This document shows positions 1 to 17,229 of a DNA stretch of 17,229 nt, one piece after another. Position numbers and translations under genes: made by a program. Numbering within the stretch: position 1 is the stretch's first letter; the number at the start of each line of letters is the position of its first letter. Under the pieces are notes generated by a model. The model worked only from the letters and a program-made list of their open reading frames with translations, was not told the DNA's origin and ran no database searches. The DNA is from a virus (Duplodnaviria > Heunggongvirae > Uroviricota > Caudoviricetes): the IMG/VR virus record IMGVR_UViG_2751185970_000003; one strand, written 5' to 3'.

Positions 1-238
1 CATCAATGGTCTTTACAAAGCGGAGGTAATACACCGTAAGAGCTGGAAAAACCGTGCAGAAGTGGAACTGGCCACACTCACGTGGGTGGACTGGTATAAT
101 AATCGACGATTGCTGGAAAGGCTGGGCCACATCCCTCCGGCAGAAGCAGAAAAAGCTTATTATGCTTCCATCGGAAACGATGATCTGGCAGCCTGAGTTC
201 ACAGATAAAACACTCTCCAGGAAACCCGGGGCGGTTCA
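1..238 (+). mobile_element. IS629-like (IS3 family) insertion sequence, right-hand end; element continues upstream of the window
   Basis: The terminal 42 bp (197..238) read on the minus strand are TGAACCGCCCCGGGTTTCCTGGAGAGTGTTTTATCTGTGAAC, which matches the IS629/IS1203 inverted repeat as I remember it, with the TG...CA ends typical of IS3-family elements. The transposase reading frame stops at 194..196, immediately before this repeat. Confidence 0.75.
2..196 (+). CDS. IS3-family transposase OrfB, C-terminal fragment (5' end outside the window)
   Basis: Frame 2 translates to INGLYKAEVIHRKSWKNRAEVELATLTWVDWYNNRRLLERLGHIPPAEAEKAYYASIGNDDLAA followed by TGA at 194..196, a typical IS3-group integrase C-terminus. 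Confidence 0.8.
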   Translation: MNGLYKAEVIHRKSWKNRAEVELATLTWVDWYNNRRLLERLGHIPPAEAEKAYYASIGNDDLAA

Positions 239-773
239 CTCTATTGTTCTTGGTGATAATGACACCGGATTTAAACAGAATGGAGACGGTATTCTGGATG
301 TTTATGCTAATAGTCAGCGTGTATTCCGCTTTCAGAATGGAGTGGCTATTGCTTTTAAAAATATTCAGGCCGGGGATGGTAAAAAATTCACGCTATCCAG
401 CTCCAACAACTCCACAAAGAATGCAACGTTTAATTTATGGGGTGCTTCAACCCGTCCAGTAGTTGCAGAGTTAGGCAATGAGGCAGGATGGCATTTCTAT
501 AGCCAGCGAAATACAGATAACTCGGTAATATTTTCTGTTAACGGTCAGATACAGCCCAGCAACTGGGGGAATTTTGATTCACGCTATGTAAAAGATGTTC
601 GCCTGGGTACGCGTGTTGTTCAATTGATGGCGCGTGGTGGTCGTTATGAAAAAGCCGGACACGCAATTACCGGATTAAGAATCATTGGTGAAGTAGATGG
701 CGATGATGAAGCCATCTTCAGACCAATACAAAAATACATCAATGGCACATGGTATAACGTCGCACAGGTGTAA
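239..773 (+). pseudogene. Tail fibre C-terminal (variable, receptor-binding) fragment, P2 gpH type; 5'-truncated silent inversion cassette (Hv')
   Basis: The translation SIVLGDNDTGFKQNGDGILDVYANSQRVFRFQNGVAIAFKNIQAGDGKKF...[17 protein letters not shown] is nearly identical to the C-terminal ~175 aa of phage P2 gpH as I recall it. It has no start codon; its 5' end abuts the IS629 terminus at 238. The ORF-track entry 54..773 is a read-through across the IS end. Confidence 0.8.
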
Positions 774-776
774 ATT

Positions 777-1305
777 ATGCAGCATATTAAAAAATATTAA
801 GTCCGGAAATCCAAAAACAAAAGAACAATATCAGCTAACAAAGAATTTTGATGTTATCTGGTTATGGTCCGAAGACGGTAAAAACTGGTATGAGGAAGTA
901 AATAACTTTCAGGACGACACCATAAAGATTGTATACGACGAAAATAATATTATTGTTGCCATAACCAAAGATGCCCCAACGCTTAATCCCGAAGGCTTTA
1001 GTGTCGTTGAGATTCCAGATATAACAGCCAATCGTCGTGCCGATGATTCAGGGAAGTGGATGTTTAAGGACGGAACTGTGGTTAAGCGGATTTATACAGC
1101 AGACGAACAGCAACAACAGGCCGAATCACAAAAGGTCGCGTTGCTTTCTGAAGCTGAAAGCGTTATTCAGCCACTGGAACGCGCTGTCAGGCTGAATATG
1201 GCGATGGATGAGGAACGCACACGACTGGAGTCATGGGAACGCTACAGCGTTCTGGTCAGCCGTGTGGATACAGCAAATCCCGAATGGCCACAAAAGCCTG
1301 AGTAA
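777..1305 (+). pseudogene. Tail fibre assembly protein, P2 gpG type (G'), with a +1 frameshift after codon 3
   Basis: From about 787 onward the translation is [37 protein letters not shown]...[10 protein letters not shown], a P2 gpG-like tail fibre assembly protein. The ATG at 777 (atg cag cat) is in frame 0 but the body is in frame +1. An extra A at about 786 creates a stop (tat taa) after 7 codons in the ATG frame. Confidence 0.6.
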
Positions 1306-1310
1306 AAATT

Positions 1311-1330
1311 AAGGCCCAATATCGGGCCTT
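1311..1330. terminator. Bidirectional hairpin terminator between the convergent G' and G genes
   Basis: AAGGCCC-aatatc-GGGCCTT forms a 7-bp stem with a 6-nt loop. On the minus strand it is followed by a T-run (complement of 1305..1309), directly downstream of the minus-strand tfa stop at 1334. Confidence 0.55.
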
Positions 1331-1333
1331 CTC

Positions 1334-1867
1334 TCATTCTGGTTGTTCGGGAAACGTTACTGGCAGGCTGGAGGTGTCTGTAGATTCGACTTTCTGCGCA
1401 TAGAGCATCCACTCGGTTAATTTTTGTTTATTCTCGTCGGAAATGATGCCCAGTCGTAGCTGTGAGTCCCATAGCTGGGTTTTATCCCTGACAAGTTGCA
1501 ACAGGCTTTGCTTTTCATTTTCCGCTTGTTGCCTCTGCTCTTCCTCGGTATAAGTTCGCTTTATCACTACGCCATCTTTGAACAACCATTTCCCCGAAAT
1601 ATCAGCCCGGCGATTTGCTGTAATATCAGGTAATTCAACGACGCTTGCGCCTTCCGGATTAATTGCTGAAACATCCTTTTCAATACAAATAATAACGCCG
1701 TTATGGTAATAGACCATTTTCAAAGTGTCTGGCTGGAAATTCTTTTGTTCCTCATACCAGTTTTTTCCATCATCTGAATAAAGCCATTTGATGTTAAATT
1801 GCTTTGTTAGCTGGTATTGCTCTTTTGTTTTAGGGTTGCCAGCAGTAATGTTTTTTAAGTGCATCAT
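1334..1867 (-). CDS. G: Tail fibre assembly protein (expressed copy)
   Basis: 177 aa, [40 protein letters not shown]...; this is a tail fibre assembly/chaperone family protein. It starts 3 nt after the H stop and the region is AT-rich, as expected for a host-range module. Confidence 0.9.
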   Translation of the reverse strand: MMHLKNITAGNPKTKEQYQLTKQFNIKWLYSDDGKNWYEEQKNFQPDTLKMVYYHNGVIICIEKDVSAINPEGASVVELPDITANRRADISGKWLFKDGVVIKRTYTEEEQRQQAENEKQSLLQLVRDKTQLWDSQLRLGIISDENKQKLTEWMLYAQKVESTDTSSLPVTFPEQPE

Positions 1868-1869
1868 CG

Positions 1870-3855
1870 TTAAATACTCCCCGCGTTATACCACGTCCCA
1901 TTAATGCAATACTGAATTGGCCTTGCCTGTGTTGTATCAATTAATTCATCACGGTTTCCGTTAACTGAACCCGTAACGACATAACCTGACCTGTCAGACC
2001 AGCCGGGACCATTCCATGTCTGAACAGATGACAGACCGCCAAGGCGAATACCTGTAATAAACCTTGAGTTACATTCTGCCCGCGTATATGCACCAACATC
2101 TCCCGCTGAAGGTTTTCGTGTCGTGGTATAGAAATCTGACCAACCTAATTCAACCCCATAACCATCACGAGCCGACCTGTAGGAAATGCCACCATTTTTA
2201 TAATTCACACGGAATTGTACGGCAGGACAGCTACCAGCATTTATATTAAAGTGAAGAATTAATGCAGATGCACCACCAATCAGGGCGTTATATGCACCAC
2301 TATCCCAATTCCATCCAACGGATGTATCACCATTAACAGTATTACCTGTTTGTCGGAGTGCAAATGCATTGACATTTTTGGCACTAATTGAGATATCGCT
2401 AGAACCATCAAAACCAACTCCAGCAATTTTTCGTGCTGTTTTCAGCTTTGTTGCAGTAGCGGCATTGCCGGACAGTTCCCCAGAAAGGCCACCGCTGAAT
2501 GTTTGTCGATTGGTCCAGGTATTCGCTGTACTGAGTAACGGTATTTTCTCCCCGCTTGTGCCGAGTTCTCGTAAACCGAGGTATTCGATAACGGCAGCAA
2601 CGGTCGATTTCGCAAGAATATCCCGCCCGACTTTTGTCAGGGTTGCCAGGCTGGCGACATCATTCCCCGTAAAATACGGAAACCTGTCTGCCGCAGTAGC
2701 AAGCCCGGCCAGCGCCGTCAGGGTGGCATCTTTCGGTTGCTTACCCGCAAGCGCGTTAGTCATGGTGGTCGCAAAATTCGGGGCGTTTCCCAGCGCCGCC
2801 GCTAACTCGTTCAGCGTATTCAGTGCGTCAGGTGACGAATCTACAAGGGCGGCAATCGCAGCCATAACGAAAGCCGTGCTTGCGATTTGGGTATTATTCG
2901 TTCCCTGTCGCGCAGCTGGCGTTGTTGGCGTTCCGGTCAGCGCAGGACTGTTTAAGGGCGCTTTCTTGTTCGTTTCATCCATTACCGCCTTAACCGCTTT
3001 CGATGTCGCGGCCAGTGTTTCAGACGTGCTGTTGGTGGCACTACTGAGCTGGACTATCCCTTTTTGTGCCGTCGTGGCGTCCTGAGCGGTATATTTTGCG
3101 TTAGCAAGGTCATACGCGGCCTTTACTGCTTTCGGCGTTGCAGCCTGCGTTTCAGACGTGCTGTTGGTGGCGCTACTGAGCTGGACAAGGCCTTTTCGCG
3201 TCGTGCTGGCATCCTGCGCAGTATATTTACCGTTAGCAAGATCATACGCGGCCTTTACTGCTTTCGGTGTTGCAGCCTGCGTTTCAGACACGCTGTTAGT
3301 GGCGCTACTGAGTTGAACAAAGCCTTTTGCGGTCAGCGAGGCGTCCGGGTGACGTCGTGACTGTTCATGCTCTTTCAGTTTGTCATCCACGTAATCCACT
3401 GTGGCCATCACCATGGTGTTGTCCACGGTAAGCGCCACGGTGGCAGTGCTGGATACGGTCAGAATGGTGCGAAATGTTTGTGCACGACCGGACCCTTCGG
3501 CAACGGCTGGCTTGTAACTTTCGGCAGTATTTCCCACCGCGATTAAATCGCCGTGCTCATCAAATACACCAATTTCCCGGATCCAGAATCCGCCCGTTTC
3601 AGGAGGAATAACCAGCTCCGCAATAATGCGGTTCTGATGTGTTGCGTCCAGGATGACGCGATTAACAGTATGTCGCCACACCTCATGCACCAGACGGGTC
3701 TGCTTACTGTCTGGTGTGGGCAACGTGCCGCCACCGTCGCCCACGGCCATATGAGTCAGGCGGACAGGCTTACCATCTGGCGCGGCTACCTGAGCTAATT
3801 TTTTTGCACCCGTATCGGTGATAATGGTTTTAAATTTTCGTGTTGTGGTACTCAT
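1870..3855 (-). CDS. H: Tail fibre protein (P2 gpH homologue with a divergent C-terminal receptor-binding region)
   Basis: 661 aa. The N-terminal ~430 aa track P2 gpH (HEVWRH..., IAELVIPPE...GGFW, EHEQSRRHPDASLTAKGF, repeated QLSSATNSTSETLAATPKAVKA units, ...AVIEYLGL). The C-terminus after the crossover site is unrelated to the P2-type Hv' cassette at 239..773. Confidence 0.92.
   Translation of the reverse strand: MSTTTRKFKTIITDTGAKKLAQVAAPDGKPVRLTHMAVGDGGGTLPTPDSKQTRLVHEVWRHTVNRVILDATHQNRIIAELVIPPETGGFWIREIGVFDEHGDLIAVGNTAESYKPAVAEGSGRAQTFRTILTVSSTATVALTVDNTMVMATVDYVDDKLKEHEQSRRHPDASLTAKGFVQLSSATNSVSETQAATPKAVKAAYDLANGKYTAQDASTTRKGLVQLSSATNSTSETQAATPKAVKAAYDLANAKYTAQDATTAQKGIVQLSSATNSTSETLAATSKAVKAVMDETNKKAPLNSPALTGTPTTPAARQGTNNTQIASTAFVMAAIAALVDSSPDALNTLNELAAALGNAPNFATTMTNALAGKQPKDATLTALAGLATAADRFPYFTGNDVASLATLTKVGRDILAKSTVAAVIEYLGLRELGTSGEKIPLLSTANTWTNRQTFSGGLSGELSGNAATATKLKTARKIAGVGFDGSSDISISAKNVNAFALRQTGNTVNGDTSVGWNWDSGAYNALIGGASALILHFNINAGSCPAVQFRVNYKNGGISYRSARDGYGVELGWSDFYTTTRKPSAGDVGAYTRAECNSRFITGIRLGGLSSVQTWNGPGWSDRSGYVVTGSVNGNRDELIDTTQARPIQYCINGTWYNAGSI
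2566..2591. other. gix/hix/cix-like 26-bp crossover site for a Din-family serine DNA invertase, inside the tail fibre gene
   Basis: TTCTCGTAAACCGAGGTATTCGATAA matches about 21 of 26 positions of Mu gixL (TTCCTGTAAACCGAGGTTTTGGATAA, from memory). It sits at the constant/variable boundary of H, where the protein reads VIEYLGLRE. Confidence 0.6.
2988..3345. repeat. Tandem 132-bp (44-codon) repeats inside H, about 2.7 copies
   Basis: Units beginning at 3017, 3149 and 3281 are near-identical (gtttcagacgtgctgttggtgg...), with partial units at the flanks. They encode KGFVQLSSATNSxSETQAATPKAVKAAYDLANGKYTAQDAxTT repeated. Confidence 0.85.
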
Positions 3856-7845: not shown

Positions 7846-8234
7846 GCCGGATAGGCTCCGTGTGGTAACTGAAAATGCGGTCCGTCTTTCAGGGTCTTCC
7901 AGTCGCCGCCCCATTCCACCGGAATATTCAGTTCCCGGCTGGCCTGTCTGAATGCTGCTGCGATTTTTTCGTACAGCGGCCATTCCCATGACATCTGGCT
8001 GCCGATATAAGCCACAACATCCACGGCATGCCCCGTAAGGTGGCGGCTGTTCATGGTCTGGCTCTTACCCGTGGCCACCAGTTGCTTCTGGCGGTAACGG
8101 CTGCGCAACCCTTCGGTGATACCAAAATCCACTTCCGAGATTTCCAGTGCCCGTCGGGTCACTTTCACCAGATCAGGATTTACACCCTGCAAATTCTTTT
8201 CGCTCCGGCTGCTGAATTTAAATGTGTTGCTCAT
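7842..8234 (-). CDS. Endolysin, peptidase M15 / L-alanyl-D-glutamate peptidase type
   Basis: 130 aa with the zinc-peptidase signature SRHLTGHAVDV and a downstream DGPHFQ, placed between holin and spanins. This is not the lysozyme-type P2 gpK. Confidence 0.75.
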   Translation of the reverse strand: MSNTFKFSSRSEKNLQGVNPDLVKVTRRALEISEVDFGITEGLRSRYRQKQLVATGKSQTMNSRHLTGHAVDVVAYIGSQMSWEWPLYEKIAAAFRQASRELNIPVEWGGDWKTLKDGPHFQLPHGAYPA

Positions 8235-8554
8235 TCGTCCTTCTCCTTCACCCTGCGATTAAAGGCCGCAATAACCTTGTCGCGTGCTTTCTCTGCACCC
8301 ATAAAACCGATTGATGCGCCGATAAACGTCACGGCATCTTCAGGAAACCCGAAGAAGCGCAACGACCCGGCCACGGCCATGGCAAGAACGCCGCACGCCA
8401 GCGATCCCGTTACGGTCTGAACCAGTGTTCGTCCGTCATAAAGGCTCATCAGCGCGGAAATGCTGACCGCCGCGCCTACTGCATACACCGTTGGCAGGTG
8501 GTCAAAGAGCCACGCAATAACCTGCTCTGTGATCCCTGTTTGAATGGTGCTCAC
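8231..8554 (-). CDS. Holin (three predicted transmembrane segments, charged C-terminus)
   Basis: About 107 aa from the GTG at 8554, with a GGGGGAG ribosome-binding site 6 nt upstream. Hydrophobic segments TVYAVGAAVSISALMSL, VTGSLACGVLAMAVAGSL and AVTFIGASIGFMGA are followed by a KR-rich tail. It sits immediately upstream of the endolysin with an ATGA overlap. Confidence 0.7.
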   Translation of the reverse strand: MSTIQTGITEQVIAWLFDHLPTVYAVGAAVSISALMSLYDGRTLVQTVTGSLACGVLAMAVAGSLRFFGFPEDAVTFIGASIGFMGAEKARDKVIAAFNRRVKEKDE

Positions 8555-10200: not shown

Positions 10201-11252
10201 TTAGCTGTCGGCGAACTTCAGGCCAGTAACCATCGCGCACTTGCCATAGTCTTCAACGACATAAGCGTCATTGATGGACTGGTAGGTGGCGATGCGGTTG
10301 TATTCCGGCTCGTCTTTCATCAGGCGACGCATTGAACCTTTCTGCCAGTAAATCGACAGGTTGTTGAACGAGGTGATCAGCATCGTTGCATCCGGGAAGA
10401 ACGGCGCAAGGAACACGCCCAGCCCGCCAATGGTGCGCGATGACAGGATGAGCTGCCCGGCGAGTAATTCCGCATTGGGATTCTGGCCGCTGATGCTGTT
10501 CAGCACGGGCAGACGCAGCGAGTTAAACAGGTTGCGCCCCATAATCACCACGAGGTCGTCAGCTTCCTTGTGCCATTCATCCAGCAGGGATGAACGCGCG
10601 TCCTGTACCAGTGCATCAGCGTTCGCATACTTACCCGCGTGCGCCACGGTGTTGTCCATGTTGCGGGAGGTCAGCGTCACGTCATTCATAACGCGTTCGC
10701 TGGCGTCGGTTCTGATGTGCTCCAGCCAGCCCACGTTAACGTCCTGAAGCAGCTTGTTGGTGCTGAAGTTGGACTCATCCGCGTGAGACGTGCCGTTGAA
10801 ACCGATCATGATGCGGTCAAGCGCCACCTGTCGGGCAATCTGTGCGCTGATGCGGGACTGAAAATCAGGGTGTGCCGACCAGGCATCAAGCTGCGGATAC
10901 GAAATAAACGTGTCGTAGTTCACCTGTTCACACTGATATTTGCGGTTTTTCAGATCAACCACGTTATTCGGGTTACGGCGTTTTGTGCCGTCATAACTGG
11001 TATTCGTGCGCGCAATCGGTCCTGTGGTATCCAGGAGGATTTTTTCGCCTTTCTGGTCGGTCACGCCGATCACGTTATTTTTTTCGTAAATTCGGTACTT
11101 TCCTTTGAGGCGTTTTCAAAACGCTGCTGCACCGCGGGTTCCACGGTAAATCGCGACACCAGTGCAGATACCGGGATATTATTAAGCGACACCTGCTGCG
11201 CCATATAGCAACCCAGCTTGTTGCGGGTAATATCTGACATCACCAGATTCAT
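10201..11252 (-). pseudogene. N: Major capsid protein gpN, interrupted by a 1-bp frameshift in a homopolymer (T7 at 11078..11084)
   Basis: The ATG at 11252 has an AAGGAG ribosome-binding site 9 nt upstream. The first 60 codons (...FTVEPAVQQRFENASKESTEFTKK) end at a stop at 11070; the rest (...NVIGVTDQKGEKILLDTTG...NLSIYWQKG...YVVEDYGKCAMV) is in the -1 frame. One extra T/A in the run would give a continuous ~350-aa P2 gpN-like protein. Confidence 0.75.
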
Positions 11253-16524: not shown

Positions 16525-17130
16525 TTACTCCTTGTCCATTGCGTACAGCCCATTAACCAGAGCAAACTGTGGCACCCCGTCCGCGATGAAAGTCGCATTA
16601 ACTCCGCAGGCTTCGCGGATAGCGGGTGCCACAATCTCCGCCCCTCCACCGACAACCATCACCCGCCCGTAACCCGAAAAAACCGCCAGCGCGCGGATCA
16701 CGCGTTGTTTCAGTGTTTCTTCCTTTTCACGAATTACCGCCATCAGGCTGGCGTAATGCGCGTCATTGTGGATGTGCTGGCGCAGCCAGGCTTCATCATG
16801 GCGATGTTCGATAATGGTATTGGCGATGTGGTGACTGGTGCGCATACCGTTAGTGGCCATCACCGACAGTACGGCATCGGCCATCAGAGAAACGCCCACG
16901 TGTGGATCGCAAAACACCTGGCTGATACCTGCCAGTTGCCCCTGAACCTTTGCCACATCCAGCGTGGTTCCGCCCAAATCCACAATCAGCAGGGATTCAA
17001 ACGGACTCATGTCAGCCAGTGCCTTAAAGCCAGCCGGAATGGATTCAGGCATAACCTGTACGTTACGGATAGTGAATGCTTCGCCGTTCTGGTACTCCAC
17101 CGGGCGCATGACGTTCGCTTTTTTGCGGTT
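16525..17130 (-). pseudogene. parM: ParM/StbA-like actin-type partition ATPase, 5'-truncated (about 115 N-terminal residues missing) by an IS insertion
   Basis: The translation ...NRKKANVMRPVEYQNGEAFTIRNVQVMPESIPAGFKAL...LLIVDLGGTTLDVAKV...VFSGYGRVMVVGGGAEIVAPAI...FALVNGLYAMDKE aligns with R1 ParM from about residue 120 onward (phosphate-2 and adenosine motifs present). The coding sequence abuts the IS terminus at 17131 and the only in-frame start is a TTG inside the IS end. Confidence 0.75.
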
Positions 17131-17229
17131 TGAAGTGGTCAACAAAAACTGGCCACCGAGTTAGAGTTTTTCCAGTATCGATTTTCCGATTCGTTTGGGG
17201 GGAACCCACCGTTATATTCGTGCGGTCTT
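17131..17229. mobile_element. Terminus of an IS3-family-like insertion sequence (IS911-like end), continuing beyond the window
   Basis: The sequence begins TGAAGTGGTCAACAAAAACTGGCCACC, which resembles the IS911-type terminal repeat (TGAAGTGG...TGGCCACC) as I recall it, exactly where ParM homology stops. No ORF is included in the 99 bp available. Confidence 0.5.

Follow-up and report, generated by a model that had tools for sequence, protein, structure and literature searches.

The stretch of DNA analysed here (17,229 nt, hereafter the window) covers the late region of a P2-like prophage and carries part of an insertion sequence (IS) at either end. It is 100% identical to contig MDDH01000574.1 (GCA_001712585.1), as identified by exact look-up of the open reading frame (ORF) that crosses its left-hand junction (window 180–773), and corresponds to the whole of that draft contig, with IS629 at its left border and IS911 at its right. 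MDDH00000000 is the genome of Shigella boydii FC1764, a clinical isolate from India (PMC6563743, Table I), consistent with the Shigella host background hinted at in a preliminary description of this DNA. Both contig ends stop in repeats, and the rest of the Hv′ tail-fibre cassette therefore seems to be absent from the window. The features at the left end are as follows (window coordinates unless stated otherwise).

1–238, plus strand: right end of IS629 (IS3 family), with the C-terminal 64 codons of OrfB at 2–193, the stop codon at 194–196 and a terminal repeat at approximately 213–238 that ends in ...GGCGGTTCA
239–241, plus strand: CTC, right copy of a 3-bp target-site duplication; the left copy stands directly before TGAACCGCCCC at 8360–8362 of contig L015 and 11617–11619 of contig L016
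239–773, plus strand: C-terminal part of Hv′ (Hv′C), the silent cassette in this orientation (178 codons, residues ~102–278 of a 278-aa ORF; stop codon at 771–773)
742–1305, plus strand: tfa′, the alternative tail-fibre assembly gene (187 aa from the ATG at 742)
1334–1867, minus strand: tfa, the expressed tail-fibre assembly gene (177 aa, Caudo_TAP domain), within the invertible segment
1870–2565, minus strand: Hv, the variable C-terminal part of the expressed fibre gene H, within the invertible segment
2566–2591, plus strand: crossover site L (TTCTCGTAAACC GA GGTATTCGATAA), inside H codons 422–430 and the sole Din-type site in the window
2592–3855, minus strand: Hc, the constant N-terminal part of H; full-length H spans 1870–3855 (661 aa)

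Over 14,874 bp, the prophage shares 97.8% identity with Escherichia phage 520873 (Peduoviridae, Xuanwuvirus); across the 17 kb of the window compared, 30 genes stand in the same order in both. It shares with this P88-like phage parM, Q, P, O-N-M-L, the baseplate genes, H, tfa, tfa′, Hv′, the invertase and gpU; the Shigella copy differs in its frameshifted capsid gene, in the IS911 in parM and in the IS629 in Hv′. The major capsid gene (10201–11252, minus strand) has lost 1 bp near 11077 (nucleotide 176 of the gene, relative to phage 520873), which splits the product into 60 + 290 aa, and this split was called in all ten related contigs (L003–L012). The tube and D genes are shortened in several relatives. 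Given the capsid frameshift, the prophage is defective. Between the window and an IS-free Shigella relative (L005), the only differences across 13.6 kb are one substitution and one 1-bp indel. In the baseplate gene J (minus strand), one G of the GG present in L005 and L016 is missing at ~4683, a 1-bp deletion that divides the product into 200 + 90 aa; it is private to the window assembly and may be a homopolymer sequencing error. At the right end of the contig, an IS911 end (~17132–17229) that is 98–99% identical to copies annotated as ‘IS3-like element IS911 family transposase’ cuts the prophage parM (16525–17145, minus strand)—two different IS3-family elements thus bound the contig.

The surrounding gene order was read from two uninterrupted relatives, L001 (Escherichia coli) and L005, in which Hv′ (278 aa) is followed by a 26-bp site, a 199-aa recombinase and then gpU. 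The FI-FII-E-T-U operon converges on V-W-J-I-H-G with the invertase between them and gpD on the opposite strand (L005 14652–21502; L001 1–4966). All these tail genes run in one direction in phage P2, and converging tail operons would differ from the P2 arrangement; they are normal in the Xuanwuvirus phage 520873. Two local features of the fibre genes were also noted. Hc contains an internal direct repeat (window 2987–3200, ~214 bp, 86% identity) that encodes ...GxVQLSSATNSxSETxAATPKAVKAAYDLAN... units. In tfa′, a 1-bp insertion near 786 (ATGCAGCATATTAAAAAA, compared with ATGCAGCATTTAAAAAA in E. coli) breaks the usual frame, with its start at 777, by a stop after seven codons; the ATG at 742, in another frame, gives back a 187-aa ORF, a form that is present on 506 Shigella contigs.

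The contig begins within IS629. The OrfB C-terminal part matches positions 321–369 of the 369-position IS3 profile NF033516 (E = 1.6 × 10−11), and the reverse complement of window 213–238 is TGAACCGCCCCGGGTTTCCTGGAGAG, identical to the right repeat of a 1,310-bp copy in E. coli O103:H2 strain 12009 (left repeat TGAACCGCCCCGGAAATCCTGGAGAC; 3-bp duplication ATC). That copy is itself 98.7% identical to the phage BP-4795 element annotated as ‘OrfA/OrfB protein of IS629’. The right 238 bp at the present locus are 98.7% identical to the O103/O145 copies, and an element with this degree of identity to window 1–238 is found in 4,130 of 5,426 complete E. coli genomes, at 25,453 places in all and as many as 50 in a single genome. 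Compared with the BP-4795 IS629, identity at the right end is 96.2% over 238 bp and 95.8% over 382 bp, and at the left end it is 96.6% over 294 bp. As IS629 subtypes diverge by 4–5% (PMC3271280), the 96.2% identity falls within the subtype spread. Terminal inverted repeats beginning TGAACCGCCCCGG... lie at both ends of the element, the right one ending at window 238 and the left one starting at L015 8363 and L016 11620, and both agree with the repeats of the BP-4795 IS629 and of the 1,310-bp copy in O103. No uninterrupted relative aligns to the window before position 239 and all do so from there on, which places the boundary exactly at 238/239. At this locus, 294 bp of the left end and 382 bp of the right end are assembled and no contig spans the element; the coding parts recovered are the OrfB C terminus (window and L013) and the start of OrfA (L016 11674–11913, HTH_Tnp_1 domain). 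In a complete IS629 (~1,310 bp), a −1 frameshift links orfA to orfB for production of a DDE transposase; the copy at this locus is probably full length. The assignment of positions 1–238 to an IS629-like element in the preliminary description thus holds, as the OrfB C terminus, the terminal repeats and the identity to annotated IS629 all agree; transposase-coding sequence, a partner for the terminal repeat and an alignment to IS629, any of which might have been missing, are all present.

The other side of the insertion was recovered from a sister contig, L015 (LPTK01000418.1), which carries the IS629 left junction. In it, gpD, FI, FII, E, T and U are followed by an intact invertase gene, a second crossover site (site R, 8008–8033), 329 bp of Hv′ and the left end of IS629 (8363). 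The left junction in L015 reads ...AGCTC/TGAACCGCCCC, where the slash marks the edge of the IS; the left-junction DNA of L015 and L016 (...GGTGGTAGCTC/TGAACCGCCCCGGGAATCC) can be set against the right junction in the window (...GGTTCA/CTCTATTG) and against the uninterrupted sequence at the insertion point, GGTGGTAGCTCTATTG. The trinucleotide CTC is doubled and nothing has been lost, which indicates a simple insertion without deletion; the two CTC copies were seen in different assemblies (LPTK/LPTF for the left, the FC strains for the right) of the same allele. IS629 has no sequence-specific target and generates duplications of 3–4 bp (PMC3271280). Left-junction proteins were predicted for several duplication lengths and then sought by exact protein look-up. 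For a duplication of 3 bp, the predicted protein was matched by a 117-aa protein of S. boydii (P0007, WP_290124118.1), encoded on L015, except for one Ser-to-Phe change in the IS-encoded part, where the IS copy at the locus has TTC in place of the predicted TCC. On the right-hand side, the 197-aa version of the junction ORF (window 180–773) was found on four contigs, L013 among them, and the 239-aa and 203-aa versions had no exact protein match. The junction was not found in any complete E. coli genome. Much of what the preliminary description had proposed for this junction is therefore supported: the IS interrupts the silent Hv′ of a P2-like prophage, approximately 330 bp (in L015, 329 bp separate site R from the left end of the IS) and the second crossover site lie beyond it, and both the remainder of Hv′, recovered on L015, and a 3-bp target-site duplication (CTC) exist. 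Its wording that the cassette is truncated has to be corrected—Hv′ is interrupted, with nothing deleted.

The segment into which the IS has inserted is flanked by two 26-bp sites. Site L was located in the window with a Din-consensus pattern, and site R, beside the invertase gene (L005 13944–13969; L015 8008–8033), reads TTCCTGTAAACC GA GGTTTTAAATAA. The two sites are inverted relative to each other, share the same GA core and both fit the Din consensus; a search for the site R sequence with up to three mismatches found no match within the window, site L differing at more positions. The Din-family format is two 12-bp halves around a 2-bp core, with a GA core in gix and bix (PMC3241671, Table 3). 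Without the IS, 2,679 bp separate the site centres; with it, the segment probably measures ~3,992 bp, assuming the full 1,310-bp element. The invertase ORF (199 aa) is intact and identical in L005, L013 and L015 and has Resolvase and HTH_7 domains. Its product is ~88% identical to Gin of phage Mu (E = 3 × 10−100 over 183 residues against the Gin structures 4m6f and 3uj3), with the catalytic Ser9 aligned; NCBIfam gave no specific invertase family above cut-off for the 199-aa protein. At the nucleotide level, the first 240 nt of the gene match Mu gin at 234 positions (97.5%), and it is in the 5′ part of gin that Mu carries its Fis-dependent enhancer.

Both orientations of the segment were found, among different isolates, with and without the IS. 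In orientation A, that of the window, Hc is joined to Hv, and the corresponding 661-aa H (one of the two IS-free orientations) is present on 71 contigs. In silico inversion yields an in-frame 716-aa H′, and this exact protein is present on 182 contigs, including S. boydii Sb227. For the interrupted allele, the opposite orientation (orientation B) is represented by L013 (MINU01000009.1, S. boydii FC2710), which has the same IS junction. Positions 145–2726 of L013 are 100% identical to window 1–2582, including the IS end and a single-nucleotide polymorphism (1454T) that L005 lacks; the only four mismatches (2583–2592) are those of the swapped outer half-site. Beyond the window-like part, L013 runs into the invertase gene and gpU with 100% identity to L005. 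The reciprocal junction is found on L016 (LPTF01000073.1), in which gene I and a chimeric H are followed by IS629 OrfA. The chimera in orientation B (P0046, 555 aa) was predicted and then found exactly on three contigs; it consists of Hc, the N-terminal part of Hv′ (Hv′N) and 15 IS-encoded residues, the fibre being cut after residue 540. The four crossover sites read as follows.

Orientation A, site L: TTATCGAATACC TC GGTTTACGAGAA
Orientation A, site R: TTATTTAAAACC TC GGTTTACAGGAA
Orientation B, H-side site (L016): TTATCGAATACC TC GGTTTACAGGAA
Orientation B, invertase-side site (L013): TTATTTAAAACC TC GGTTTACGAGAA

These form a perfect reciprocal set in which the sites of the flipped state are exact hybrids, exchanged at the central GA. 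The exchange falls within an identical core of 10 bp, the place at which serine invertases cut and too short a stretch for homologous recombination. Given one insertion allele in two orientations, linked by reciprocal hybrid sites, the insertion was followed by at least one site-specific inversion; the IS lies inside the invertible segment and was carried along at the flip.

This bears directly on the preliminary reading, in which the IS had severed the cassette from its crossover site and invertase and so fixed the switch in its present orientation. The window itself, which shows neither a second site nor an invertase gene, gives that impression, and the IS does sit between Hv′C and the invertase gene. 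Just past the IS, however, lie an intact site R and an intact invertase gene, the sites are moved apart only to ~4 kb, and one and the same insertion allele is seen in both orientations with reciprocal hybrid sites. A frozen switch is thus contradicted, and a fixation of the present orientation is very improbable. A separation of the cassette from its invertase in any functional sense is likewise not supported, as the IS lies within a segment whose two sites, like the invertase gene, are intact.

The two orientations could also have arisen without any inversion after the insertion, if two independent IS629 insertions had hit the same base with the same relative orientation, one in a genome with orientation A and the other in a genome with orientation B. 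IS629 is a multicopy element that is often found in prophages (PMC3271280), and both IS-free orientations circulate in Shigella. Such a coincidence is nevertheless scarcely credible for an element without sequence-specific targeting (PMC3271280): the junction and its 3-bp duplication are identical to the base, and 2,582 bp of the window, with the private polymorphism, recur in L013 without a difference. In addition, FC1764 and FC2710 are both S. boydii from one hospital collection with near-identical sets of resistance genes (PMC6563743). That the orientation-B contigs are assembly artefacts, joined across the short common core, deserves mention in that all of the data are short-read draft assemblies and the common core is a repeat. 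We regard it as negligible in probability, as the identical core (~10–14 bp) is far below assembler k-mers, each reciprocal junction is on three contigs from independent assemblies in two projects, and the chimeric protein was found exactly as it had been predicted beforehand.

We therefore consider it highly probable that the locus represents a simple insertion of IS629 into Hv′ of a Gin-type invertible segment, in a defective P88-like prophage of S. boydii, and that the segment has flipped since. In the sequence of events that we propose, IS629 would have transposed into the non-expressed Hv′, 329 bp inside the segment from site R, duplicating CTC and deleting nothing, and the segment would then have flipped, IS included, at least once. 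Orientation A, as in the window, would provide full-length H (Hc-Hv, 661 aa) together with an intact tfa; in orientation B, Hc would be joined to Hv′N and run into the IS, with a truncated 555-aa product as the outcome. The alternative fibre is thereby knocked out and the switch itself is spared. The flip was probably catalysed by the cis-encoded invertase with Fis and a putative enhancer, and flipping probably continues. In ~90 public assemblies there are ~14.5-kb contigs (L023–L026) that start at the IS911/parM junction and stop 8 nt into site L, with a partial H of 424 aa; contigs that end inside site L suggest an assembly fork in cultures with mixed orientations.

The flip could also have been catalysed in trans, by a different Din-family enzyme encoded elsewhere in the host, such as in a Mu-like or e14-like prophage, and this has some precedent. 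PinQ of the Qin prophage inverts the e14 P segment, cross-action within the Din family being known (PMC12529663), and a Mu-like fibre/invertase module was found in related samples (L019 and L011). We nonetheless think it unlikely that such an enzyme performed the flip, as the neighbouring invertase ORF, unbroken and without differences in three of three contigs examined, is the simplest candidate; the finding that the interrupted segment was inverted would be the same whichever enzyme acted.

Among known systems, the locus most closely recalls three invertible tail-fibre modules. Like the G segment of Mu with Gin, it comprises a constant fibre part, a site, Sv-U facing U′-S′v, a second site and an invertase gene, with 26-bp sites centred on GA; two positions distinguish site R from gix. 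In contrast to Mu, the module is located between gpU and the H/G genes of a Xuanwuvirus prophage, not in a Mu genome, its segment measures 2.68 kb as opposed to ~3.0 kb, its constant part is that of a P2-type H and one of its cassettes contains IS629. The B segment with pinB (D00660; Tominaga et al. 1991, here as represented in PMC3241671) shares the host genus, Shigella. In the sites given in PMC3241671, bixL (TTCCTGTAAACC GA GGTATTCGATAA) equals the orientation-B H-side site of L016 and bixR differs from site R by one base; the inner half-sites of D00660 both read TTCCTG, whereas site L of the present locus reads TTCTCG. The D00660 stretch used in PMC3241671 covers ~3.2 kb (positions 600–3788). 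The e14 P segment, with Pin/PinQ, is likewise a Din-family tail-fibre switch, whose inversion goes on although its E. coli prophage is cryptic (PMC12529663); it belongs to another prophage type and has other sites (AA core). With regard to the insertion itself, the same IS, with duplications of 3–4 bp and no target specificity, is familiar from E. coli O157:H7 and its relatives, in which most IS629 copies sit inside prophages (PMC3271280). The present case differs in that the host is S. boydii and the target is inside an invertible segment, such that the IS changes orientation with the segment.

A literature search found no report of IS629 in this tail-fibre switch. The locus is a new instance of two well-known things—IS629 in a prophage and a Gin/PinB-type tail-fibre switch—and implies no new biology. 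Given that the prophage had already decayed (capsid and parM), the biological weight of the insertion is small, and its fibre genes may be without phenotype, the prophage being defective. It could be imagined that a former two-fibre host-range switch has turned into an ON/OFF toggle (661 versus 555 aa), and that the host keeps it in this capsid-less prophage because the fibre or its chaperone may serve the cell, an idea that we think very improbable. If it were true, the toggle could, for example, block a receptor against superinfecting phages, as reported for StfE2/PinQ of e14, in which the host phenotype is a block of phage T2 adsorption (PMC12529663). The value of the analysis is mostly corrective: a contig that ends in an IS resembles a truncation, and public sister assemblies show an intact, invertible switch. 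The locus also shows, as a modest natural example, that a Gin-type system can cope with an additional 1.3 kb between its sites, and an IS can therefore disable one of two phase-variable outputs and leave the switch untouched. Gaps of this kind in draft genomes can be closed by exact-protein look-up of predicted junction products.

Two further observations concern sequences close to the insertion point. Short contigs of 322–330 bp (L020–L022) were considered as the missing Hv′ piece, bounded by the IS and site R, and were not counted as IS alleles: their right ends stop 3–4 nt short of the insertion point, and such a break could equally stem from a second fibre gene, on L011, with sequence in common from window 243 on. 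On this contig (UAUO01000003.1, 13300–14650), Hv′C-tfa′ is joined from window 243 on to a different fibre N terminus (367 aa), which adjoins a Mu-type Phage_Wedge1 gene, and IS3- and IS66-family elements then follow. This join coincides with the start of the conserved ...SIVLGDNDTGF domain and is 4 bp away from the IS629 site.
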